A DNA stretch of 38,965 nucleotides. Source: a virus. A program made the translations under genes and the position numbers. This document shows, in pieces, positions 6,644 to 38,965 of this stretch; the stretch's first letter is position 1, and each line of letters starts with the position of its first letter. The notes under the pieces were generated by a model. That model made no database searches, was not told the DNA's origin, and saw only the letters and a list, made by a program, of their open reading frames with translations. The stretch lies in IMG/VR virus record IMGVR_UViG_3300029481_000019; one strand, 5' to 3'.

Positions 6644-6818
6644 CTTCTTTCGGTTCGCACTTCTTGATGAATATGATCACAGAGTCGCAATGCGCACAAC
6701 GGTATTTGACTTCGCGCATGAGCGGCTTGCCCTTCTCGCAGACGAACACACGGCCGTTGGGGATATGCCCTGCGTGAGGGTCGATCTGCCTACCGCAGTT
6801 GGGGCATTTAATGGGCAT
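6630..6818 (-). CDS. zinc-ribbon small protein
   Basis: 62 aa, CPNCG...CAHCD motifs, GAAGG RBS. Confidence 0.5.
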   Translation of the reverse strand: MPIKCPNCGRQIDPHAGHIPNGRVFVCEKGKPLMREVKYRCAHCDSVIIFIKKCEPKEVDHG

Positions 6819-7155
6819 GGTTCACTACCTTCCTTCCGCACTGGGGGCAGAAGTTCCATGTGCCGCTCACGTGGTAGTGCTCCTCGTCCTCGACCCTGCA
6901 TCCGCAGACCGAGCACTCGAAGCCGTTGTCACAGGCTCCCATTTCGTTCTCGTCGTAGACGTTCTCGCACTCGCCGCGGTCGATTAGGTCGGCAATACGC
7001 TCGAACACGTCGTTCATCTCGTGGTATCCGATGTCGGGTTCCATTACCGTCTCGTCCAGCAGTTCATAGAACTCTTCTTTGTAGCGGACGCGGTTCATGT
7101 AGGATAGGTGACGCAGATTCTCTACAGTCTCGCAGCGCTCATCATTGGTAATCAT
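6808..7155 (-). CDS. zinc-ribbon hypothetical protein (paralog of 7152-7490)
   Basis: Starts MITNDERCETVENLRHL and shares MIT-DE, RIADLIDR, CxxCG and CPxCG blocks with the upstream gene. ATGA overlap with the upstream stop. Confidence 0.5.
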   Translation of the reverse strand: MITNDERCETVENLRHLSYMNRVRYKEEFYELLDETVMEPDIGYHEMNDVFERIADLIDRGECENVYDENEMGACDNGFECSVCGCRVEDEEHYHVSGTWNFCPQCGRKVVNHAH

Positions 7156-7490
7156 TCGTCCACCACCTCTGCACGGCACTCCGGGCAATATGTGAAATCT
7201 TCCGGGTCGCAGTCTGAATCGCCATATGTAAATGCTTTATACCCACACTGGCTGCAATGGAACGACCTGTAGTCATTCGAGAGGTTTCGGCATGTCGGGT
7301 TGTCGTGTCGGTCGATCAAGTCTGCGAGACGTTGAAATATGCTGCCGTCGAGGCCGACGGTGGCATCGCGGATCATGTTGAGTACAGATGCCTCATGTGC
7401 AATCGTGCGGTCGCAGTCCTCATCGTCGACGAGGTGGTCGAGTTGACGCAAAGTATGCACTACTCGGCGGCGCTTTTCATCAGTAATCAT
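7152..7490 (-). CDS. zinc-ribbon hypothetical protein (paralog of 6808-7155)
   Basis: 112 aa, GAGGAG RBS and C-terminal CSQCG / CPECR zinc-ribbon motifs. Confidence 0.5.
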   Translation of the reverse strand: MITDEKRRRVVHTLRQLDHLVDDEDCDRTIAHEASVLNMIRDATVGLDGSIFQRLADLIDRHDNPTCRNLSNDYRSFHCSQCGYKAFTYGDSDCDPEDFTYCPECRAEVVDE

Positions 7491-7894
7491 TTACTTTCAC
7501 TCCTCAGCTCATTAATGCGAGACGCGATGTCTTTACACATATTGACAGTACAATCCCCTGCGTAGAGCTTGCATTCGGCGCACTTCTTACCGATATTGTG
7601 CGCGTAGGCACACACTGGGTCTTCGAGGTCGGGAGAATCTCCGCAAACCTCAACCGCGTGCAGGTCTTCGTCTAGCTTCTCCCAGCTATCGGGCTCGGCG
7701 AGATGCATGTCGCTTACTGCGAACAACGAAGTGCCGACTGTGAATTTCACTCGCCATATACCAGTGCAAGTATCGGTACGAATGACATACATGAATGACT
7801 TTACGAGGTTCTTAAAGCCGTACCTGTCGTACAGCACTTTGGTATCAAGCGGAATTTCTCGCCCGTCGGCATCTTTAGGCGACTCGATGTTCAT
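7487..7894 (-). CDS. hypothetical protein with a Cys-rich C-terminus (paralog of 7894-8295)
   Basis: Shares IE-PKD-GREIPLDT, PDSWE-L and ASRI-LR blocks with its neighbour. TGATG coupling. Confidence 0.5.
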   Translation of the reverse strand: MNIESPKDADGREIPLDTKVLYDRYGFKNLVKSFMYVIRTDTCTGIWRVKFTVGTSLFAVSDMHLAEPDSWEKLDEDLHAVEVCGDSPDLEDPVCAYAHNIGKKCAECKLYAGDCTVNMCKDIASRINELRSESK

Positions 7895-8295
7895 CAGTCC
7901 TCACCCCTCAGGTTGCGGATGCGTGACGCCACGTCTCGCATCACTGCGTCTGCGCAGGCGTCGTCGCGCGCCGGGCAAGACATGCAATCATCGCCTAATT
8001 CGTGAAAGTAGTGACAGGGGCCGTATGTTTGCCCATCATCGAACGCAGTCAAGTCTTTTTCCAGCTGTTCCCAGCTATCGGGCGGGGTGAGGTACATGAG
8101 CTTTGGGTCGAGCCGTCTAAACATGTCTGTGGTCGCACGCCACTGGCCCGCCACGCTGTCGCTCGTGTCGAAGTCAGTCGTGTAGATCCACCGCGTGATG
8201 TTGTAGGCATTGCCGCTGGCGCCGAATAACTTTGTGGTATCCAGTGGAATCTCGCGGCCCTCCACATCTTTAGGTAACTCGATAGTCATTTGCAT
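7894..8295 (-). CDS. hypothetical protein with a Cys-rich C-terminus (paralog of 7487-7894)
   Basis: 133-aa tandem paralog. Confidence 0.5.
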   Translation of the reverse strand: MQMTIELPKDVEGREIPLDTTKLFGASGNAYNITRWIYTTDFDTSDSVAGQWRATTDMFRRLDPKLMYLTPPDSWEQLEKDLTAFDDGQTYGPCHYFHELGDDCMSCPARDDACADAVMRDVASRIRNLRGED

Positions 8296-8353: not shown

Positions 8354-8656
8354 TCAGAGCCTGCCTCGGCCCTCGTTCCGCTCGTCCATGCGTCGGATGG
8401 CGGCGTCGACCTCGCCTTGCGTGGCGCCGACTGCCGCCAATACGTTGGCGACTGCCTGAACTGTGTCCATGCACTCGTCGATGAGGCAATTGCGCATGTC
8501 TACCCAATCCTGCTTGAACGTCGTGGGGCGCATGCTATCCAACTCCTGCCATGCACCGAAGACCTCGGCTGCCTCCTCTAACGGCTTGAGCATTTGATGC
8601 TTGTCGTCATTCACCTTGTTGAAAACACGCGTGTTCAACAGATACCCGTCAATCAT
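8354..8656 (-). CDS. MazG-like all-alpha nucleoside-triphosphate pyrophosphohydrolase (small phage type)
   Basis: 100 aa with PLEEAAEVFGAW ... DTVQAVANVL ... RRMDERNEGRG, resembling the EExxE/D MazG core. Paralog of 9674-9958. Confidence 0.5.
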   Translation of the reverse strand: MIDGYLLNTRVFNKVNDDKHQMLKPLEEAAEVFGAWQELDSMRPTTFKQDWVDMRNCLIDECMDTVQAVANVLAAVGATQGEVDAAIRRMDERNEGRGRL

Positions 8657-8668
8657 CGTTTATCCTTC

Positions 8669-9496
8669 CTAGATACATTGATCGATTACGGCTTTGCCGC
8701 GTAACTGGTCGACCCACTTCGGCGGGATTGCCCCAAAACCGTAATACACGCCCGCGATAGCACCCGCGACAGCAGCCGTAGTATCGGTGTCGTCGCCTAA
8801 ATTGACGGCTGCGAGCACACAATCAGTATATGAGAACGTATTTAAAAAACACCAGAGCGCGGCCTCGAGCGTATGCTCGCAGTAGCCGTCGTTTTTGACT
8901 GCCTCGACAGGCCTCGATGCGATGTACCCGTATCTATGCCAGAGGTCGCCCTTCGCCGGCGTGCCGACATTGCGGATAGTCCGCAACATATCACACAGCG
9001 TTACACATGACCACTCGGCCACTGGGTGCGCATGCGTAATTGCCGAGACATCGCGTATATCATAGGGTTCGATGGGGTCGAGCATGGCGAGCGGTGCCGT
9101 CCTCATGAGCGAGCCGTTGCCGCAGTCGTCATATGACTTAGCAGGCACGCCTGTCGAAATAGCCCTCTTGCATGTCACGCCGACATCGAATACACGCCCA
9201 TCACACGTGTAGTCACCGTGCTCCAGCCATTGACGGAACCTGTAGGCGATGTCAGCCGTGTCGATGATTCCGAGCCGCTTGATGCTCGCGCATATGCACA
9301 AGGCCATCGACGTGTCGTCAGACCACGTGCCGGCATACTGCCCGTGCGTGCCGCCGTCGACCATGCCGGTGCATTCGAACGTGCCTCGCTCACGAAACTC
9401 ATATGGCACGCCGAGGGCGTCGCCGACTGCGAGCCCGTATATGCACGAGCGCATACGGTCCCTGTCGTATGATACGCAGTTATATATTGTCGACAT
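8669..9496 (-). CDS. ADP-ribosylglycohydrolase (ARH/DraG family)
   Basis: Starts MSTIYNCVSYD with a GAAGGAGGTG RBS. The N-terminal GLAVGDALGVPYEF motif and size (~276 aa) fit the ARH family. Confidence 0.8.
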   Translation of the reverse strand: MSTIYNCVSYDRDRMRSCIYGLAVGDALGVPYEFRERGTFECTGMVDGGTHGQYAGTWSDDTSMALCICASIKRLGIIDTADIAYRFRQWLEHGDYTCDGRVFDVGVTCKRAISTGVPAKSYDDCGNGSLMRTAPLAMLDPIEPYDIRDVSAITHAHPVAEWSCVTLCDMLRTIRNVGTPAKGDLWHRYGYIASRPVEAVKNDGYCEHTLEAALWCFLNTFSYTDCVLAAVNLGDDTDTTAAVAGAIAGVYYGFGAIPPKWVDQLRGKAVIDQCI

Positions 9497-9674
9497 AACG
9501 CACCTCCTTCGCCTCGTACTCGCCGACAGTACCGTCGGCGAACTCGACGAGCCCGACGGGTTTCTGGTTGTTCCCGAGGAAACCGCCACGCTGGAACCAC
9601 CCGATCAAGCTGCCGCCGTGCCCGTGCACAGTGACAGGCCTCCGCTCCATGGCCACGATCACTTCGACCTGCAT
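9480..9674 (-). CDS. small hypothetical protein
   Basis: 64-aa ORF translationally coupled (TGATG) to the upstream MazG-like gene. Confidence 0.4.
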   Translation of the reverse strand: MQVEVIVAMERRPVTVHGHGGSLIGWFQRGGFLGNNQKPVGLVEFADGTVGEYEAKEVRYVDNI

Positions 9675-9958
9675 CAATACCTACCCCTCTTCATGTTTCG
9701 TTTCTCGCAACGTGCCATCAGCTCCGACATATCATCGATGCCGACCGATGCAACACAGTTGACGACTGCTTGGATCACATCTGCGGCCTTGTCGAGCATC
9801 TTGTCGCGCGCCTTCGCCGAATACCTCTGGTTGTCACGGCGCTGTATCCAGAAACGCCATGCGACGAAGAACTCCGCCGCTTCCTCGAGCGGCCTCGTGA
9901 ATTGCTGCCGATCGTCTGCGTAGACATATTTGAACGGCTTCACATCACCGATTAGCAT
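9674..9958 (-). CDS. MazG-like all-alpha NTP pyrophosphohydrolase (paralog of 8354-8656)
   Basis: 94 aa with PLEEAAEFFVAW ... DVIQAVVNCV ... KRNMKRGRY. Confidence 0.5.
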   Translation of the reverse strand: MLIGDVKPFKYVYADDRQQFTRPLEEAAEFFVAWRFWIQRRDNQRYSAKARDKMLDKAADVIQAVVNCVASVGIDDMSELMARCEKRNMKRGRY

Positions 9959-12085: not shown

Positions 12086-12149
12086 ATGTACTCGTGTACA
12101 TACTTATTTTCAAAATAATCAAAAAACTTTTCGACGAATTTGAAAATAG

Positions 12150-12479: not shown

Positions 12480-12560
12480 AGGAAGTGCGGTTTTGGGCCA
12501 CCGCACCTTCCTCCTTTGTGAGGAGAACGCCCCAGATGCAATTGAGCGTCTGGGGCGTTC
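12480..12560. terminator. Bidirectional terminator pair (two adjacent ~11-12-bp GC-rich hairpins) between convergent plus gene 12213-12458 and the minus-strand dCMP deaminase operon.
   Basis: Hairpin 1 is AGGAAGTGCGG...CCGCACCTTCCT; hairpin 2 is GAACGCCCCAGA...TCTGGGGCGTTC followed by TTCTATTTACT. U-tracts are present in both orientations. Confidence 0.6.
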
Positions 12561-12569
12561 TTCTATTTA

Positions 12570-12995
12570 CTATGCACTTGTGACGACATCGACACCGGCG
12601 TTGTCTATCATGCGCGTGCACACGGGGCATGGTGAGATCTCATCAGCCGAGATGCGCTCGCCTGTCTCGAAGTCGACGCCAGCCAAGTACAGCGTCGCGC
12701 CGATCATCTCAGAGCGTGAGGCCGACAACATGGCGTTCATCTCGGCGTGTACCGCCGGGCATGAGCCGTAATCGCCGTCGTTATGCCCGTGCCCGCAGCG
12801 ATGGCATATACCTGTATCGATGCAGTTGACATCACCGCGCGCGGCGCCGTTATAGCCTGTCGCGATGATCTCATCATTGGCCACGATTACGGCGCCGTAG
12901 CGACGGCGCAGGCACGTCGACCTGGCCGCCACCGCGAGTGCGATGTCGAGGTAATACTCGGCTTTACTAGGCCTCTCCGGTCGATCCGAAAGCAC
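12570..12995 (-). CDS. dCMP deaminase (zinc-dependent CMP/dCMP deaminase family)
   Basis: HAEMNA and PCPVC zinc-ligand motifs. Probable GTG start with GAGGAGAGGGG RBS, overlapping the dUTPase 3' end; the track ORF extends to 13028. Confidence 0.75.
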   Translation of the reverse strand: MLSDRPERPSKAEYYLDIALAVAARSTCLRRRYGAVIVANDEIIATGYNGAARGDVNCIDTGICHRCGHGHNDGDYGSCPAVHAEMNAMLSASRSEMIGATLYLAGVDFETGERISADEISPCPVCTRMIDNAGVDVVTSA

Positions 12996-13386
12996 CGTCG
13001 CCCCTCTCCTCGCCCAACTGCTCGACAAAGTCGGCCAACACGATCGGCATGACGACGAGCTGGCCGATGCGGGTGCCGCCGGGGACCTTCTTCAGTTTGT
13101 CGGTTAGGTTGGTGACGATCGCATGCACCTCACCGGTATAGCCGGAGTCGATCGGCGGCAGCTCGCAGACGAGGCCTTCGAGGCTCATGCCCGATCTGGG
13201 GAACACGCAGGCCATGACGCCGTCGGGCAGCTCGAGCGAGAAGCCTAGCGGGATGCGACGGGTCTCGTGCGGCTTCAGGGTCTCACCGAAAGTGGTGTAG
13301 ACGTCGGCGCCGGCGTCGTTATAATGCGCACGGACCGGGAGCTTGATGTCGGTATCCTCGGCGATACGGTTGATTTTAATCTTCAT
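12967..13386 (-). CDS. dut: dUTPase (trimeric dUTP pyrophosphatase family)
   Basis: All five dUTPase motifs are present: AGADV, PRSG, PPIDSGYTGEV, RIGQLV, RGDGAFGSTG. Confidence 0.85.
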   Translation of the reverse strand: MKIKINRIAEDTDIKLPVRAHYNDAGADVYTTFGETLKPHETRRIPLGFSLELPDGVMACVFPRSGMSLEGLVCELPPIDSGYTGEVHAIVTNLTDKLKKVPGGTRIGQLVVMPIVLADFVEQLGEERGDGAFGSTGEA

Positions 13387-14194
13387 CCTTTACCTCCGTG
13401 ACGATGGCGTTATTAAGGCAATATTTAGTGACAGTGTGCCTCGGCGTATCGGACGACATGGTGATGCGTTCGATCTCCGAGATATGGGTCAAAAACTTCT
13501 CGATGTCGAACTTGAGGTGCAGCGCCGCCTGCTTGCAGCACCAGACTTCGCGGACGCGGTCGATGTCCTTCTCATATGCATGGAGCGACACAGTGAAATG
13601 CGTATACTTGCCGTAGCCGACGCCGAGCTCGTTCGCGATGTGCTTCTGCAGCTCCGTGAAGAACACGACATCGTAGGGCGTGCCGAGCCATACGTCGTTG
13701 GAACGCATGATGCCGGTGCAGTCGAGCTTGCCCCCGCGGAGCTCGAACACGAGTGCGATAGTGCAGATCTCGTCTTTTGTCTCGAATCGCTCTGGGTTCG
13801 GCACATTGAAATTGATGACTGCGCGTCGTGAATACGGGTCACGCTTGAGCGTGTCGATGACCTGCGCGACCTGGTCGAAGCCATAGCGGTTGAACACGAT
13901 AGCGCCGTACGCAGATCGGTTCGTCACGCCATCGTCGCTGATGTGCTTCCAAAATGACGAGAACTTCGAGATGAACTCGACATCTTCGCGGCCGGTGAAA
14001 TACCATGCGAGCTCGCCCAACATATACGAAAGCGAGTAACCCATGCGGGCCGTCGCGATGTTGTCGGTGATGTCGAGCAGCGTGAAACCGCTGTTGAGCA
14101 GTTCTTTGGTGCCAGCTACCTCCTGGCCCTGCACCGATATTTTGCCGCAGAGTTGGCGGTAGATGTCGTTCATCGACTTGCCTACAACATGCAT
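13376..14194 (-). CDS. thymidylate-synthase-family pyrimidine C5-modifying enzyme, predicted dCMP-specific (dCMP hydroxymethylase or dCMP methyltransferase rather than a canonical ThyA)
   Basis: It aligns by eye to ThyA: ELAWYFTG ~ ELLWFLQG, DPYSRRAVINFNVPNP ~ DPDSRRIIVSAWN, catalytic Cys in EICTIA ~ APCHAF, and RSNDVWLGTPYDVVFF ~ RSCDVFLGLPFNIASY. The residue equivalent to ThyA Asn177 is Asp, the substitution that switches specificity from dUMP to dCMP (as in T4 gp42). His147 is also replaced. Confidence 0.7.
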   Translation of the reverse strand: MHVVGKSMNDIYRQLCGKISVQGQEVAGTKELLNSGFTLLDITDNIATARMGYSLSYMLGELAWYFTGREDVEFISKFSSFWKHISDDGVTNRSAYGAIVFNRYGFDQVAQVIDTLKRDPYSRRAVINFNVPNPERFETKDEICTIALVFELRGGKLDCTGIMRSNDVWLGTPYDVVFFTELQKHIANELGVGYGKYTHFTVSLHAYEKDIDRVREVWCCKQAALHLKFDIEKFLTHISEIERITMSSDTPRHTVTKYCLNNAIVTEVKDED

Positions 14195-14658
14195 TTCAGC
14201 ACCTCTTTCATGGCAGTCGCCGGGTTGTTGTCTTCGAGCACAATCGCGGCGTCGTGTGCCTCAGCCCACTCCTGGTAACGCTTGTAGATCTCGACGATGT
14301 TCGGGCAGACGACATCGGCGTACTCGTCGCCGCGTTCGTTCAGGCGGCCGATGACGACATGGAGCGGGGGCAAAAGCACGATGATCGGGATACGCGCGAA
14401 CTCGCAGAACTCCGTCAATTCCTCCGCATTGTCATTATTGATACGCGGCTCGCGGCCGAACAGGTCGGAATACACTTGCTCCGACACCCAGCAGCGGTCG
14501 ATAATGACACCGTCGCATGCGAGCTTCTGCAGATACTCCGGCATAGACTGGCCGCCGTTGGCGGTCATTTTCAGAATGTTCATGTCGAGTGCTCCGGCCA
14601 ATGACTTCGCGAGCGTGGACTTGCCGGCGCCGTCAGGGCCTTCGATGATGATGGGCAT
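14182..14658 (-). CDS. deoxynucleoside monophosphate kinase (thymidylate-kinase-like P-loop kinase)
   Basis: MPIIIEGPDGAGKSTLAKSL P-loop, ~158 aa, adjacent to the TS-family gene and analogous in position to T4 gp1. Confidence 0.6.
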   Translation of the reverse strand: MPIIIEGPDGAGKSTLAKSLAGALDMNILKMTANGGQSMPEYLQKLACDGVIIDRCWVSEQVYSDLFGREPRINNDNAEELTEFCEFARIPIIVLLPPLHVVIGRLNERGDEYADVVCPNIVEIYKRYQEWAEAHDAAIVLEDNNPATAMKEVLKCML

Positions 14659-28375: not shown

Positions 28376-29068
28376 TTACTTAGTTCTCAGCCACGTGTGC
28401 GGCCCGATACTCGGTACCCGCACCCATGTACCACTGATGTTGTTCGGGTCAAACGAGCCGTCTGTCTCCAAGTACTCGCCGACACGATGGGCCATGATCC
28501 ACGTCGCGTTCGGGTCGAGGGTATCGAGGATGTGCTGCCACGCCGTCCACGAAGAGTCCGACCCGCCGCGCCGCCACCATATGTCTGCGCCGCTCATAGC
28601 GACCTGCTTCGGGTACCCGCCGCTCTTTTCGCCCCATTGCACGAAGGTGACGAGGGTCGCATAGGTCTCGCCGCTCGAAAGCCCGATGACCTTGGTATTC
28701 TTGAACTCGACCACAGTCTCCTTCGGGTGGTTCTTCATATACCAGCTCGGCGGCTGGTTGTCGTTCCTCGTGTCCTTGATCTCGCCGCCGCTTGGCCCCT
28801 GCGGGCCCATCGGCCCTTGCGGGCCTGTCGGGCCTTTAGGCCCCTGGATGCCCTGCGGTCCTTGCGAGCCCGCGGGGCCAGTGGGGCCTGTCGGCCCCTG
28901 CTTGCCCGTTGGCCCTTGCGGTCCTGTCGCGCCCGCGTCGCCTTTCGGACCCTGCGGGCCGGTCGCGCCCGTAGCGCCTCGCGCGCCGGTGGGCCCTTGT
29001 GGTCCTGTCGCGCCAGTATCACCCTTGGGGCCCTTGATGTTACCTACAAGGTATTTAGCCATGATCAC
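28376..29068 (-). CDS. tail fibre protein with an N-terminal collagen-like (Gly-X-Y)n triple-helix region and a C-terminal globular (putative receptor-binding) domain
   Basis: About 30 consecutive GXY triplets ([22 protein letters not shown]...), then an aromatic-rich ~120-aa C-terminal domain. Confidence 0.7.
28750..29035. repeat. collagen-like Gly-X-Y triplet-repeat coding DNA (fibre gene)
   Basis: Recurring 9-bp GGxCCxxxx periodicity. Related at the DNA level to the two blocks inside the Tal gene. Confidence 0.7.
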
Positions 29069-31200
29069 TCACCTATCTCATAGTAAAGCTCGCCCGTAGA
29101 TGGGTCGTATGAGAGCGGCGGGGCTGCCGCCCCGTCTGCCACGTGCGACCAAAGGTTGCCGTCAGAATCGACCGTCAGCGAGAAGAACCCCGACAGCGGT
29201 ACGGTGACACCAGAGTCGCCACGCTCCCCCTTCTCGCCTTTCGGGCCCTGTATACCCTGCGGGCCGCGCTCGCCTTGCTCGCCCTTCACGCCCTGTGGTC
29301 CCGTTGGGCCTGTCGCGCCCTTCGCGCCGGTCGCGCCGGTCGCGCCCGCGTCGCCTTTCGGACCCTGCGGGCCGGTCGCGCCCGTGGCTCCCTTTGGACC
29401 TTGCGGCCCCGTGGAACCCGCCACTCCGGTCGCGCCGACCGGGCCCTGCGGACCCATCGGGCCCTGCTCGCCTTTGACGCCGGTCGCGCCACTCATGTCA
29501 GCGATGAGTGAGTAGCCATCCGCTGACTTCACGTACAGCTCGGCGTTGTGCGGATCCTCGACATTCGAGCTGATTATCGCGAAGCCGCCGACTGCCACAC
29601 CGTCGACCTTCCACCCAGCCTGCATTGCCTCGTAGCTGGTGTACACCTTCGAGATGGAGAAGCCCTCGCCGGTATCGCCCTTCGGGCCCTGGGCACCCTG
29701 CACACCTTGCGGGCCACGTGGGCCGGTCTCGCCCTGTATACCCTGTGGGCCGCGCTCGCCTTTCGGACCCTGCGGGCCTGTGGCGCCACGCGGCCCCTGC
29801 GGACCTGTCGCGCCGGTGTCACCCTTCTCGCCCTGCGGTCCGATTTCACCTCGCGGGCCGCGCTCACCGGTGTCACCCTTCTCGCCCTGCGGTCCGATTT
29901 CACCTCGCGGGCCGCGCTCACCCCTCGGACCCTGAATACCGGTCGCGCCACGCGGAATTCCGAGTGAGAGCGTCTTGACCAGCCCCTCGCCTGAGAGCGA
30001 CGCGGTGGCCTTAGAGCCTTCCGTGAGCGTGGACACTTCTCCCATGGCGATATCCGCCTGTGCCCACGTCTGGAGCGAGTTCGAAGCGTCTGTTACGGCC
30101 TTGTCGGCCTTGGCCTCAACGGCCTTGAGCGATTCCGCGTCGACTTCCGCACTAAACGTGTAGTTCTCGAGCTTCAGGCCCTTTCCCGCAAAGTACGCGT
30201 GCCCGCCACCTCCGTCGGCGATAGCGCTGGCCGAGTTCTTTGTCGTAGTCTCACTGCCGACCTCGTACCTGTATGTTGCCACGCCATGTGAGACCTGCAC
30301 GATCTTCTTCACCACGGTCGCGCTAACGGTCTTACCATGTGCGTTATCGCGCGCCGAGATGATGTCGCCGACGTCGACGTCGATATCGTCGTGCGCGTCG
30401 ACCTCGACGCTGCCTCTGGTCTGGTACTCCCTGAGCTTCTTGCCGCCCTCCTCCTCGAGCTTCGCCTCGTCGGCGTTGCTGTAGTCGTAGAGCGCACATA
30501 TCTCGTCGACTCCAAAGAGGCTCTGGGTGTGGCTGACGTTACCGGCCGTGTCCGCATAGAAATGGACTACGGCGCGGTTCTCGAGCTCGCCAGTACCTGC
30601 ACAGACCAGGTGATTGATACAGCGGTGAACTGAGGTCAGCGTGAAGTCCAAAAGGTCGGAATCAACCTTGTTCGCATAGTCTACAACGGGCGGCAGAGAG
30701 ATTTCAACCTTACCGCCCTTACGACGCATGACGACCTTGCGACCATTGGCCTTCGCCATGGCTTTCAAGCCGCTGTAGCCGTCCACGAATCGATCAAAGG
30801 TGTAGCTTACCGACGTATCGTCGGAAGCGGCGGAGAACAGCCCAGAAAGCCCCATGCGCTCGATGAGCGACGCGAGCACATCGCTCGCCTTGCCGCTGAC
30901 GGAGAGGTATCCACTTCCCGAATCGGGGAGCAGGCGCTTGCCTGCCAAAATACCATGCCAGGTGCGGCCCTTGCATAGAATTGACCCCGTTGCCTCCCTG
31001 CCGGCCTCATAGCTCGCCTGGTCGATAACACCACCATACTCGGTGCCGTCGATGAACACAAATTGCCCCTCTTCGGGGGTTTCGTCCGCGCGGGCCTCCA
31101 ATTTCAGTGCGTTCTCGTCGCTGCCGAAAGCTATGTCAAGCTCGAATTCCTCGATTTCGCGGATATCGCCAACAGTTGGATCATTCACCACTAAAACCAT
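29065..31200 (-). CDS. tail-associated protein Tal (distal tail / tip protein) carrying two internal collagen-like (Gly-X-Y)n blocks
   Basis: 711 aa. The N-terminal ~400 aa resembles the siphovirus Tal/gp27-like tail tip. GXY block 1 is at about aa 420-520 and block 2 at about aa 577-670, separated by a globular insert, with a C-terminal beta-rich domain. Confidence 0.7.
29200..29470. repeat. collagen-like Gly-X-Y repeat coding DNA (Tal block 2)
   Basis: GXY periodicity. The antisense frames give artefactual Pro/Arg/Ala-rich ORFs. Confidence 0.7.
29640..29945. repeat. collagen-like Gly-X-Y repeat coding DNA (Tal block 1), with internal near-identical ~45-bp units
   Basis: The peptide [20 protein letters not shown] is duplicated, giving DNA direct repeats. 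Confidence 0.7.
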
Positions 31201-38475: not shown

Positions 38476-38712
38476 TCATGCCTCTTCCTCGATATAAAAC
38501 GGGCAATCGGCGCCGTCGAAATATACGGCATCAGGCTTGATGTTGCCGAGGCGGCGCTCGTACGCCATGCAATATGACTTGTCGGGCGAGTCCTCCCACG
38601 GCGCCGGGCCGTGTGCATTCGCACACGTCCGGCATTTGCGTGGGTTACGCTTCAGGCAGCCAAATGAGTCGTCGAGCTCGAGGTTTGATACTTTCTGTTT
38701 CTCGGTAGCCAT
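38476..38712 (-). CDS. small Cys-rich protein immediately downstream of the MuF-ART toxin gene (immunity / partner candidate)
   Basis: Start MATEKQKVSN with an AAGGAG RBS 8 nt after the toxin stop. Five Cys (CLKRNPRKCRTC ... C ... CPFY). 78 aa. Confidence 0.5.
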   Translation of the reverse strand: MATEKQKVSNLELDDSFGCLKRNPRKCRTCANAHGPAPWEDSPDKSYCMAYERRLGNIKPDAVYFDGADCPFYIEEEA

Positions 38713-38720
38713 GGTACTCC

Positions 38721-38965
38721 TTACTTGTATTTGCTCTTCGAGCCGGTCCACTCTTTGGGATCCTGCTGGAACTTATCGTAACCCTGCTCGGGGTGCAGCT
38801 CCAACACGACATGCATCTTGCCGTCATCGCCTTTGTACACGTCGGTCGCGGTGTAGTAACCGCCGCGCTGCAAGATCATCTCAAACTCACTGCCGAAATA
38901 GTTCTGTTTCTTCTTGCCGTCCCAATCATCGTAATTCGTTGCGCCAGAGTATGCACTGAAAGGCT
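38721..38965 (-). CDS. C-terminal end of the same MuF-ART gene (ART catalytic region, stop TAA near 38721-38723).
   Basis: Reverse translation of the window end is continuous with reverse translation of the window start (...KKKQNYFGS|EFEMILQRGGYYTATDVYKGDDGKMHVVLELHPEQGYDKFQQDPKEWTGSKSKYK*). It contains the E-x-E-[IV]-L-L-x-R-G motif typical of C2/C3/iota/VIP2-type ADP-ribosyltransferases. The total gene is about 869 aa. Confidence 0.75.
   Translation of the reverse strand, partial: PFSAYSGATNYDDWDGKKKQNYFGSEFEMILQRGGYYTATDVYKGDDGKMHVVLELHPEQGYDKFQQDPKEWTGSKSKYK
38889..38965. repeat. 77-bp exact duplicate of window positions 1-77 (assembly overlap marking a circular, complete genome)
   Basis: String identity between the first and last 77 nt. 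Confidence 0.85.

Follow-up and report, generated by a model that had tools for sequence, protein, structure and literature searches.

The window analyzed here is the whole 38,965-nucleotide stretch of viral DNA deposited as IMG/VR record IMGVR_UViG_3300029481_000019.

A DraG/Tri1-branch hydrolase with an intact active site

A 275-aa open reading frame occupies positions 8669–9496 on the minus strand of the window, with an ATG at 9496 and a stop codon at 8669–8671. We favored this ATG as the start over an upstream GTG at 9589, since a strong Shine-Dalgarno sequence, AAGGAGGTG, precedes the ATG by 5 nt. The earlier note had recognized an ADP-ribosylglycohydrolase (ARH) of the ARH/DraG family in this frame, and profile searches bear out that identification. 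The product matches the Pfam family ADP_ribosyl_GH (PF03747) with an E-value of 4.1e-58 and 197.8 bits, against a curated cutoff of 26.2 bits, over profile positions 2–286 of 287, and it matches PHROG 6572, annotated ‘ADP-ribosylglycohydrolase’, with an E-value of 3e-59. Residues 21–34 form the motif GLAVGDALGVPYEF. The note had also proposed looking in an alignment for loss of the catalytic Asp/Glu metal ligands; every position is kept. The protein retains D26, E33, S59-D60-D61-T62, D104, T154-H155 and D236-T237-D238-T239, which we take to correspond to the catalytic Glu and the metal ligands numbered in DraG and ARH3. In alignments reaching down to 48% identity and among 30 clade homologues, the catalytic and metal positions are invariant or nearly so. 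One viral ARH (L025, 51% identical) was left out of these alignments on account of an internal stop and a frameshifted C-terminus.

Among solved structures, the best match is Tri1 (6dre_A, E-value 1e-38), with a Listeria protein (PDB 8ZA7, 3e-38) close behind; both are ~30% identical to the phage protein. The DraG structure (PDB 2WOC) matches at 1e-30, and matches to ARH3 reach ~1e-12 and are confined to the metal motif at the C-terminus. An AlphaFold2 model of the phage protein (pLDDT 74, pTM 0.80, with loops 31–57 and 105–129 of low confidence) adopts the all-alpha ARH fold, and Foldseek returned Tri1, Lmo0067 and DraG as its top matches, with a probability of 1.0 and a TM-score of ~0.7. Both profile searches and Foldseek indicate that the protein has neither a NADAR nor a macro fold. 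These results confirm that positions 8669–9496 encode a DraG/Tri1-branch ARH whose catalytic Glu and di-metal site are intact. In both sequence and fold, its closest solved relatives are ARHs that confer immunity to ADP-ribosyl transferase (ART) toxins.

Tri1 belongs to the Serratia type VI effector/immunity pair Tre1-Tri1 (PDB 6DRE/6DRH), and PDB 8za7 was deposited as an ‘ART-ARH type toxin effector-immunity pair’. In both pairs the ARH, the enzyme type shared with this phage, undoes the arginine ADP-ribosylation set by the ART toxin. A literature search on the Listeria Lmo0066/67 pair yielded nothing useful. Both the Serratia and the Listeria pair consist of adjacent bacterial genes serving secretion systems, whereas the toxin domain considered here is part of a phage head protein. 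Tri1 reportedly also blocks its toxin by means of an N-terminal extension. An extension of this type is absent from the phage ARH: the alignment pairs residue 68 of Tri1 with residue 11 of the ARH at its start, and only ~10 residues precede the domain. The DraT-DraG system likewise combines an arginine writer with an eraser of the same fold, metal and catalytic residues as this ARH. However, DraT-DraG is a regulatory metabolic switch acting on nitrogenase reductase within one organism, whereas the writer of this phage is a toxin domain carried by the virion, with no evident regulatory partners.

The ARH gene belongs to a run of small genes with non-structural products, flanked by replication and nucleotide-metabolism genes on one side and by the small terminase subunit on the other, and its placement in an ‘early block’, as the earlier note had it, is plausible. 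Directly upstream lies a 65-aa ORF (9480–9677, minus strand) that has no family match; its 3' end, with the stop, overlaps the first 17 nt of the ARH gene. This ORF is conserved upstream of ARH in clade genomes, is gone along with ARH in one genome (L140) and is retained in another that lacks ARH (L051). The flanking genes, both on the minus strand, are paralogues of each other (36% identical): an upstream gene of 94 aa (9674–9958) and a downstream gene of 100 aa (8354–8656), the latter with a weak MazG-like match (phrog_715, E-value 0.003) and with divergent alleles (~70% identical) in genomes lacking ARH. Pfam and PHROGs were otherwise uninformative for the small genes around ARH, and PADLOC returned no match for the ARH, its neighbors, the Collinsella ARH or the ARH of phage Versailles (the last two are described below).

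The ARH gene lies outside the toxin cassette and ends 6.2 kb upstream of the start of MuF. In a consensus scan, a strong terminator-like hairpin running from 6281 to 6254 on the minus strand (a stem of 10 pairs, including 9 G-C, with a T run after it) divides the small-gene run from the packaging and structural genes, so that ARH and MuF apparently belong to separate transcription units. At the upstream limit of the small-gene block, past the dCMP deaminase gene, the same scan showed further hairpins (12483–12564), and it placed a promoter-like site at 12100–12072 on the minus strand. Terminator-like sites as a class are not enriched over shuffled sequence (8 found, 5.9 ± 2.0 expected), and the promoter scan was likewise unenriched; of all these sites, our argument draws on the single strong hairpin alone.

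The MuF-ART gene and its swappable cassette

The ART toxin domain that the earlier note had placed on the MuF protein is real, and its gene is divided between the two ends of the window. The assembly is circular, with a length of 38,888 bp, and positions 38889–38965 of the window are a 77-bp terminal repeat of positions 1–77. Rejoined, the minus-strand gene comprises positions 2442–1 followed by 38888–38721 and encodes a protein of 869 aa. Phage_Mu_F is matched at residues 334–451 (E-value 8e-18) and ADPrib_exo_Tox at residues 636–843 (E-value 7e-11; 42.2 bits against a 23.4-bit cutoff), and the protein also matches the PHROG ‘Bxa ADP-ribosyl transferase’. Positions 1–2442 supply residues 1–814, comprising the MuF domain and most of the ART (from residue 636, at nt 537 downwards), and with them R719 and S760-T761 of the R-S-E motifs. 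The third motif, E815-F-E817, begins exactly at the window break and is encoded, with the remaining residues to 869 and the stop, at 38721–38888. The ExE motif is common to both ART alleles of the clade and to the homologues in L082 and L287. R-S-E ARTs with an ExE motif are arginine-directed.

The C-terminus of MuF is a swappable cassette that holds ART allele 1, ART allele 2, an HExxH domain or nothing. This cargo polymorphism segregates inside a single clade whose terminase and portal proteins are 92–99% identical, and the cargo types are interspersed on the terminase tree, indicating frequent exchange of cassettes between backbones. A 78-aa Cys-rich ORF (CxxC...C...C; 38476–38712, minus strand) starts 8 nt after the MuF-ART stop. 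It is found in every ART-bearing genome and is absent from every HExxH-cargo genome, and the second ART allele is accompanied by its own allele of the ORF, 53–61% identical. A small Cys-rich ORF is likewise carried by the L082 lineage and by L060. Searches of Pfam and PHROGs gave nothing informative for the 78-aa ORF or for the HExxH cargo domain. Its position and its co-variation with the ART make the 78-aa protein a candidate immunity protein or partner of the ART cassette, similar to the Bsi protein of the Bxa system.

Bxa is a MuF-ART toxin of a Bacteroides stercoris prophage and was shown by experiment to be neutralized by an adjacent ARH, BAH, and by a small binder, Bsi (Alexei et al., J Biol Chem 2024, PMC11699363). 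Phage ART-ARG pairs, and ARG immunity proteins for ART polymorphic toxins, had been noted earlier (PMC9503650, PMC3482391), and in the cultured Bacteroides phage Versailles (ON453897) an ARH adjoins a MuF-ART that has the same length, 869 aa, as the one described here. With these precedents, the view of the earlier note that a writer/eraser pairing in one small phage is not commonly described has to be abandoned. Both the Bxa system and Versailles resemble the present phage in fusing a MuF N-terminus to a C-terminal ART of the ADPrib_exo_Tox type, in having a small ORF that adjoins the toxin and in encoding an ARH-superfamily hydrolase in the same genome. Bxa, too, belongs to a family with polymorphic MuF C-termini. 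The systems differ in gene order, since BAH and Bsi adjoin bxa while the ARH studied here is distant from MuF, behind the terminator-like hairpin, and its presence does not track the cassette. Furthermore, this ARH and that of Versailles share only 22% identity, and the best solved match of the latter is ARH3-like, not Tri1/DraG-like. The host also differs, being Bacteroides for Bxa and probably Collinsella here.

MuF polymorphic toxins in general show the same features of variable C-terminal toxin domains, including ART and metallopeptidase domains, and a small downstream ORF (Jamet et al. 2017, PMC5576092). They have been reported almost exclusively from temperate phages (PMC5576092). In contrast to these and to the Bxa prophage, no integrase or repressor domain, and no lysogeny gene, was found in any ORF scanned here, and the phage may be virulent rather than temperate. 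Apk2-Aph1 (PMC10083569) is a further MuF toxin with an enzymatic eraser as its immunity protein, and shares with the present case the idea of reversal by an enzyme.

Distribution of the hydrolase relative to the toxin

We compared ~45 related genomes. Public data hold several hundred genomes of the clade, and more than 120 clusters of its ARH are listed there. Within the close clade, ARH is intact in 24 of 28 ART-bearing genomes and in 9 of the 14–15 genomes without ART. It is intact in 7 or 8 of the 10 genomes whose MuF carries an HExxH domain instead of the ART, and dead in three of the four cargo-less genomes. The dependence of ARH integrity on the presence of ART is not significant (Fisher p 0.07–0.13, with kinship and recombination ignored). 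At least eight separate inactivations of ARH have occurred, in ART and non-ART genomes alike. At least four ART-bearing genomes have lost ARH by differing lesions, namely a frameshift, two distinct deletions and the clean absence of the gene, which indicates that the ART is tolerable without ARH. One contig, L109, was set aside as chimeric, as bacterial-looking genes are joined to its ARH at codon ~194.

The ARH gene is under purifying selection, with a dN/dS of 0.13 compared to 0.05–0.075 for core genes, and the value in HExxH-cargo genomes is 0.10, at a dS of ~0.5. Its retention in genomes with HExxH cargo was considered as strong evidence against pairing with the ART; this argument was softened by the exchange of cassettes and by the adjacent MuF-ART/ARH pairs found elsewhere. 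Indeed, frequent cassette exchange weakens inference for and against ARH-ART pairing alike. In this clade, ARH is not tightly paired with ART, and is an unlinked backbone gene that is useful but dispensable.

Outside the close clade, a distant lineage with a terL 57% identical (L082/L161 and L164) has an ARH upstream of the terminase, together with a MuF-ART and a small Cys-rich ORF. Among the relatives, counted without correction for kinship or recombination, ARH was seen only in lineages that also bear an ART, and ~30 ART-less related loci are without it. The association of this ARH subfamily with MuF-ART genes recurs in unrelated phages. In 14 contigs of a ~33 kb phage group, an ARH 50% identical to ours is the next gene, ~260 nt downstream of an 874-aa MuF-ART, and the same proximity is found in L320 and L269. 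Several other MuF-ART phages (L093, L086 and L106) have no ARH within the stretch that is covered. Of 56 other viral loci that encode an ARH of this subfamily, 40 have no Bxa-like ART within 10 kb. A nucleotide search with the replication module retrieved no relatives among 50,697 cultured phage records. The only tblastn matches of the ARH in cultured phages were distant ones with less than 40% identity, from jumbo, T4-like and Streptomyces phages.

The closest bacterial homologues, 53–58% identical, represent a conserved chromosomal, non-prophage gene of ~79 Collinsella/Coriobacteriaceae species, with conserved neighbors and no adjacent ART. The only exception to the non-prophage setting of the bacterial matches is one phage-sized contig binned with a Collinsella genome. 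The host of the phage is probably Collinsella (Actinomycetota). We also observed that the conserved orphan ARH of Collinsella stands beside a variable nuclease that is a candidate for defense.

A possible second layer of protection against the phage's own toxin

The ARH is predicted to be an active metal-dependent hydrolase that strips arginine-linked mono-ADP-ribose from proteins. The ART has the R-S-ExE signature of arginine-directed enzymes and the ARH belongs to the arginine-ADP-ribose-hydrolyzing DraG/Tri1 branch, and thus the chemistry of writer and eraser matches. We propose, at what we judge to be even chances, that the ARH serves as a second, enzymatic eraser of the arginine ADP-ribosylation set by the phage family itself. 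The Bxa-like MuF-ART would be packaged in the head, and presumably injected with the DNA and remade late in infection, as other MuF fusions and T4 Alt suggest by analogy. Alt is likewise an ART that travels in the phage head and is injected, and T4 is not known to have an ARH eraser for it. The ARH, which would be made from the separate non-structural gene block, would most likely erase ADP-ribose that the ART of the phage family has placed on cell or phage proteins. The outcome would be either that the effect of the injected enzyme is ended or that the infected cell is protected while new toxin builds up. The small protein encoded straight after the ART would be the first layer, probably blocking the toxin directly, and the ARH the second, in a manner comparable to Bsi and BAH in the Bxa system.

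Reversal of the injected ART and self-protection were two of the roles offered in the earlier note. We favor them because the closest solved homologues confer immunity to ARTs, the chemistry matches, ARHs of this subfamily adjoin MuF-ART genes in other phages, and ARH occurs among relatives only in ART-bearing lineages. After the tests described above this is the best-supported reading, but a tight pairing of ARH with ART within the clade does not go with it.

A different use for the enzyme would be against foreign ADP-ribosylation, whether set by an ART-based defense or toxin-antitoxin system of the host, which the earlier note had offered as a third role, or by the injected ARTs of competing phages from the same cargo-polymorphic population, and independently of the phage's own cargo. 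That ARH stays intact under purifying selection with any MuF cargo fits such a counter-measure, and its repeated loss fits a conditionally useful accessory gene. The gene also evolves faster than the core genes and sits among small accessory genes with paralogues and allelic variation. Since most clade members encode a virion ART, co-infection would expose any of them. A precedent exists in AdfN, a phage ‘orphan antitoxin’ hydrolase of the NADAR fold that acts on DNA and counters the host toxin DarT1 of DarTG1 (PMC11825919). AdfN is a phage ADP-ribose eraser with a proven role, although its fold differs from that of this ARH, and the known anti-DarT enzymes have NADAR or macro folds and act on DNA (PMC11825919). 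In addition, no ART-based defense came to light in the presumed host, PADLOC gave no match for the ARH, and a literature search found no paper showing an ARH-fold phage counter-defense. Action against foreign ADP-ribosylation does not predict homologues directly beside MuF-ART genes in other phages, and the restriction of ARH to ART-bearing lineages among relatives also speaks against it. We therefore regard this explanation as rather unlikely.

The presence of ARH independently of ART cargo would also be compatible with action on non-protein substrates, such as O-acetyl-ADP-ribose, ADP-ribose-based immune signals or ADP-ribosylated nucleic acids, by which the enzyme would blunt NAD-derived signaling or DNA/RNA-directed defense. 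Some members of the ARH superfamily, for example ARH3, hydrolyze O-acetyl-ADP-ribose and other O-linked substrates. However, comparative genomics in a paper that cites this activity favors macromolecular adducts for viral ARG domains (PMC9503650), and the sequence and fold of the phage enzyme are those of the arginine-specific DraG/Tri1 branch, as is evident from the E-values given above for Tri1 and ARH3. As it also leaves the association with MuF-ART genes unexplained, we consider such a function improbable. We are just as doubtful that the ARH was copied from a housekeeping enzyme of the host, seizes a DraT/DraG-like ADP-ribosylation cycle of Collinsella and has nothing to do with any toxin. 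The conserved chromosomal gene of Collinsella and its relatives, with its stable neighbors and no ART beside it, is the basis for this idea. No endogenous target or partner ART is known, however, and host orphan ARGs of this kind have been proposed to be anti-viral-ART systems, not housekeeping enzymes (PMC9503650). The occurrence of ARH only in ART lineages among relatives, and of homologues beside MuF-ART genes elsewhere, also runs counter to a toxin-unrelated role. Specific capture from Collinsella is weakened as an origin and not established, because the identity of the phage protein to other viral ARHs (~50%) nearly equals its identity to the Collinsella genes, and because those other viral ARHs resemble the Collinsella genes about as closely as the phage protein does.

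The pairing of a MuF-ART with an ARH is already known from other gut phages; the concept is not new, and current understanding stands. The clade constitutes a natural experiment on capsid-delivered ARTs and their erasers, as it contains two ART alleles, HExxH cargo and cargo-less forms, each with intact and broken ARH. Should the ARH instead counter foreign ADP-ribosylation, it would be the first ARH-fold anti-ADP-ribosylation counter-defense in a phage, and would oppose a host whose own orphan ARH may target the phage ART. If the ARH does erase the modification set by the phage family's own ART, the design of MuF-ART, ARH eraser and small binder would extend beyond Bacteroides prophages to an abundant group of ~39 kb phages, apparently virulent and probably infecting Collinsella, in which the eraser can be borne on the backbone while toxin and binder swap as a cassette.

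The ADP-ribosylglycohydrolase and the MuF-borne transferase

The ADP-ribosylglycohydrolase (ARH) gene lies where the earlier note had placed it, at window positions 8669-9496 on the minus strand, running from an ATG at 9496 to a stop codon at 8669-8671 and encoding 275 aa. A strong ribosome-binding sequence, AAGGAGGTG, sits 5 nt upstream of the ATG, and the motif that the note had singled out, GLAVGDALGVPYEF, corresponds to residues 21-34. The product matches Pfam ADP_ribosyl_GH over nearly the full profile (E 4e-58; 197.8 bits, cutoff 26.2 bits), and also a PHROG family annotated ADP-ribosylglycohydrolase. Its active-site set is complete (E33; S59-D60-D61-T62; D104; T154-H155; D236-T237-D238-T239) and is kept in alignments across 30 members of the clade of close phage relatives and in homologues down to 48% identity. 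Loss of the catalytic Asp/Glu ligands had been named as the point on which the assignment would fail; all are present and conserved, and the identification as an ARH stands.

By sequence, the closest solved relative is Tri1 (6DRE, E 1e-38), the immunity hydrolase against the Serratia ADP-ribosyltransferase (ART) toxin Tre1, with Listeria Lmo0067 (8ZA7) at E 3e-38, and a Thermus ARH and then DraG further down; the match to ARH3 was weak and confined to the C-terminal metal motif. A moderately confident AlphaFold2 model (pLDDT 74, pTM 0.80) repeated this ranking by fold, with the Tre1-Tri1 'toxin/immunity pair' ahead of the Listeria 'ART-ARH type toxin effector-immunity pair' and DraG. Tri1 has an N-terminal extension of ~65 residues, with which it reportedly plugs its toxin, whereas the phage ARH lacks this extension, the alignment opening at Tri1 residue 68; the phage enzyme would therefore work by catalysis alone, without toxin plugging.

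The window's first 77 bases recur exactly at its end (1-77 = 38889-38965), indicating a circular, complete assembly with a true length of 38,888 bp. The MuF-ART gene is split over the window ends (1-2442 and 38721-38888, minus strand), and rejoining the circle gave an 869-aa minor head protein in which Phage_Mu_F spans residues 334-451 and ADPrib_exo_Tox spans 636-843, bearing out the note's placement of an ART domain on the MuF protein. The protein matches the PHROG named after the Bacteroides phage toxin Bxa. Its R-S-ExE signature consists of R719, S760-T761 and E815-F-E817, the window break falling immediately before E815, the start of the ExE motif. In ARTs of the R-S-E class, ExE denotes arginine acceptors, and the arginine-ADP-ribose bond is the one cut by DraG/Tri1-type hydrolases; the chemistries of writer and eraser are thus compatible.

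All recognised genes lie on the minus strand. Capsid and tail genes are followed by the endolysin, by the helicase, exonuclease/annealing protein, DNA polymerase and primase, by a nucleotide-metabolism cluster, by ~6 kb of small genes including the ARH, by the small and large terminase subunits and portal, and by the MuF-ART. Between the small-gene block and the packaging genes lies a strong terminator-like hairpin (6281-6254, minus strand), and further hairpins lie at the upstream edge of the block (~12.5 kb); because all of these are consensus matches, a class with no enrichment over shuffles, an 'early block' location of the ARH is a reasonable inference rather than a result. The ORFs scanned yielded no integrase or repressor domain. 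Two tandem paralogous small-gene pairs occupy 6808-8295 (minus strand), the first (6808-7155 with 7152-7490) consisting of two phrog_21525 members with a zinc-ribbon C-terminus and the second lying at 7487-7894 with 7894-8295. The nucleotide-metabolism cluster (12570-14658, minus strand), which encodes a dCMP deaminase, a dUTPase, a thymidylate-synthase-like protein (Pfam score only moderate) and a P-loop kinase, may be a sign of pyrimidine modification in the phage DNA. Two tail proteins (28376-31200, minus strand) carry long collagen-like Gly-X-Y repeats, with local G+C up to 63-68%; the 711-aa tail protein has four Pfam Collagen stretches.

Cargo and hydrolase variation in the clade

Relatives fetched via three anchors (ARH, portal and large terminase subunit) yielded a clade of ~45 distinct assembly-derived genomes with terminase and portal 92-99% identical. 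The MuF C-terminus takes four forms: the window's ART; another ART allele, sharing 43-45% identity with it; an HExxH domain of ~245 aa, unrelated to the ART and with no match in Pfam; and no cargo, in one case through a clean in-frame deletion and in another through a deletion fusing MuF to the next gene. This polymorphism within one clade is represented by loci L006, L008, L011, L021, L113, L117, L014, L023 and L002. At loci L013/L056 and L131, the MuF gene is shortened, and a 239-aa ORF overlapping its end encodes the HExxH cargo separately; either a frameshift has occurred or the toxin is split by nature.

A 78-aa Cys-rich ORF (CxxC...C...C; 38476-38712, minus strand) starts 8 nt past the MuF-ART stop and gave no match in family searches. 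Within the clade it is present in all ART genomes and in no HExxH genome, and the second ART allele is accompanied by its own allele of the ORF, 53-61% identical. In MuF polymorphic toxin systems, a cognate immunity or partner protein is expected to travel with the toxin (PMC5576092). Because the ORF co-varies with both the presence and the allele of the ART, as such systems predict, its product is a candidate immunity or partner protein of the ART cassette, similar in role to Bsi, the small binding immunity protein of Bxa. On the terminase tree of the clade, genomes with different cargos are intermingled, which implies that cassettes often switch backbones; an unlinked gene then experiences, on average, a population dominated by ART cargo.

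ARH and cassette are not inherited jointly in the 43 genomes in which both loci were readable. With ART cargo of either allele, the ARH is intact in 24 genomes and broken or absent in four; with HExxH cargo, it is intact in seven and shortened by 10 residues in one, and broken or absent in two, with one chimeric contig set aside; without cargo, it is intact in one genome and broken or absent in three (two events). The lesions are mutually independent: one is a frameshift (codon 158), several remove different internal segments, one is a 2.4-kb deletion, others are clean absences, and a Q53 stop was found in two separate assemblies. With kinship ignored, Fisher tests of ARH integrity gave p = 0.07-0.13 for ART against non-ART genomes, p = 0.38 for ART against HExxH cargo and a nominal p of ~0.03 for the cargo-less genomes, only four in number, against the rest; there may be a weak trend towards ARH decay where no toxin is carried. 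Purifying selection acts on the intact ARH genes: dN/dS is 0.13 overall, 0.135 in ART genomes and 0.10 in HExxH genomes (dS ~0.5); the large terminase, for comparison, has 0.05 and the portal 0.075. Judged from these patterns, the ARH appears to be functional, useful and dispensable, with no obligate tie to the ART.

The ARH and a 65-aa ORF are flanked by paralogous small genes (8354-8656 and 9674-9958, both minus strand; 36% identical, weak MazG-like match), and the downstream one is present as a divergent allele (~70% identical) in ARH-less genomes; this may be a hot spot at which recombination adds or removes the ARH. Contig L109 (ENA USTZ01000089, 44,121 bp) was set aside as a scored genome, with bacterial-looking genes joined in frame to ARH residue ~194. 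There (L109:1-1400), a helicase C-terminus and a Memo-like ORF ('VPHAGYIYSG') run into the clade-phage ARH; either the assembly is chimeric here or the two were truly joined by recombination.

The hydrolase subfamily beyond the clade

The best bacterial ARH matches were all from Collinsella or Coriobacteriaceae (79 of 79, 53-58% identical), and one more bacterial-side match was a phage-sized contig of the clade binned with a Collinsella genome; for these reasons the host is probably Collinsella. The Collinsella genes are chromosomal with conserved neighbours (L188-L266; example L230:4160-12854), and no ART was found near them. In 50 of the 79 species a YhcG-type PD-(D/E)XK nuclease, matching the PADLOC candidate defence family PDC-S02, is inserted just upstream of the ARH. 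Orphan host ARGs beside nucleases have been proposed to defend against viral ARTs (PMC9503650), and the Collinsella layout agrees with that proposal. Capture of the phage ARH specifically from the host was unsupported, other viral ARHs being equally similar to the Collinsella genes.

Among more distant relatives, at terminase and portal identities of 46-79%, the sole lineage with an ARH (45% identical) is that of L082/L161 and L164. This lineage also has a MuF-ART (49% identical) followed by a small Cys-rich ORF, the ARH again lying upstream of the terminase genes. No ARH was found in ~30 ART-less distant loci or in L093, a well-covered ART locus, and the closer outgroups L145 and L061 have neither ARH nor ART. 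Scanning viral contigs with the ARH alignment identified 56 more loci of the same subfamily (44-52% identical). In an unrelated ~33-kb phage group (14 contigs), the ARH directly follows an 874-aa MuF-ART after a gap of ~260 nt, the ART domain being 40% identical to the window's. The ARH of this group (L287:7112-10795, also L289-L300 and L302) is 50% identical to the window's, and no small Cys-rich ORF was detected at these loci. At L320 an ART is followed by an ARH within ~170 nt, and at L269 the ARH lies 1.8 kb upstream of a MuF-ART. The other 40 of the 56 loci, many on contigs >100 kb, had no Bxa-like ART within 10 kb as scanned with a profile that detects this one ART family only. Since a tblastn search with the window's ART domain matched just 1 of 50,697 cultured phage records, the association between this ARH subfamily and MuF-ART is far above chance. 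The sole match, Bacteroides phage Versailles, encodes an 869-aa MuF-ART; after it come a small ORF and a gene annotated as ADP-ribosylglycohydrolase. The Versailles hydrolase is only 22% identical to the window's ARH and belongs to another branch, so that two different ARH branches have been recruited beside MuF-ART toxins.

A proposed writer, eraser and direct inhibitor

In the best-supported model, to which we give an even chance, the MuF-ART is the writer, the ARH the eraser and the 78-aa protein a direct inhibitor. The virion would carry the MuF-ART and, by analogy with the MuF and T4 Alt literature, inject it. The ART would ADP-ribosylate arginines inside the infected cell, and the ARH, made from the non-structural block, would strip these marks, either ending the effect of the injected enzyme or shielding the cell while late toxin accumulates; the 78-aa cassette protein would inhibit the ART directly. 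This scheme mirrors the prophage toxin Bxa, which is neutralised by its ARH eraser BAH through catalysis and by Bsi through binding (PMC11699363). A redundant second layer would account for the ARH being losable, and its backbone position, together with frequent cassette exchange, would account for its persistence beside other cargos. That the ARH instead protects against foreign ARTs, whether these belong to host defence or to competing phages, seems to us unlikely. We consider it improbable that it acts on soluble or nucleic-acid ADP-ribose substrates, and see little chance that it takes over an endogenous host ADP-ribosylation cycle.

The earlier note had regarded a writer/eraser pairing in one phage as not commonly described; such a pairing has already been published, with experimental support, for a MuF-ART phage (PMC11699363), and was foreseen by comparative genomics (PMC3482391, PMC9503650). 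What this writer/eraser phage adds is an ARH of the Tri1/DraG-like rather than the BAH-like branch, a probable Actinomycetota host, a MuF-ART/ARH phage without detected lysogeny genes, an eraser unlinked to the toxin, and a well-sampled natural polymorphism of both cargo and eraser.
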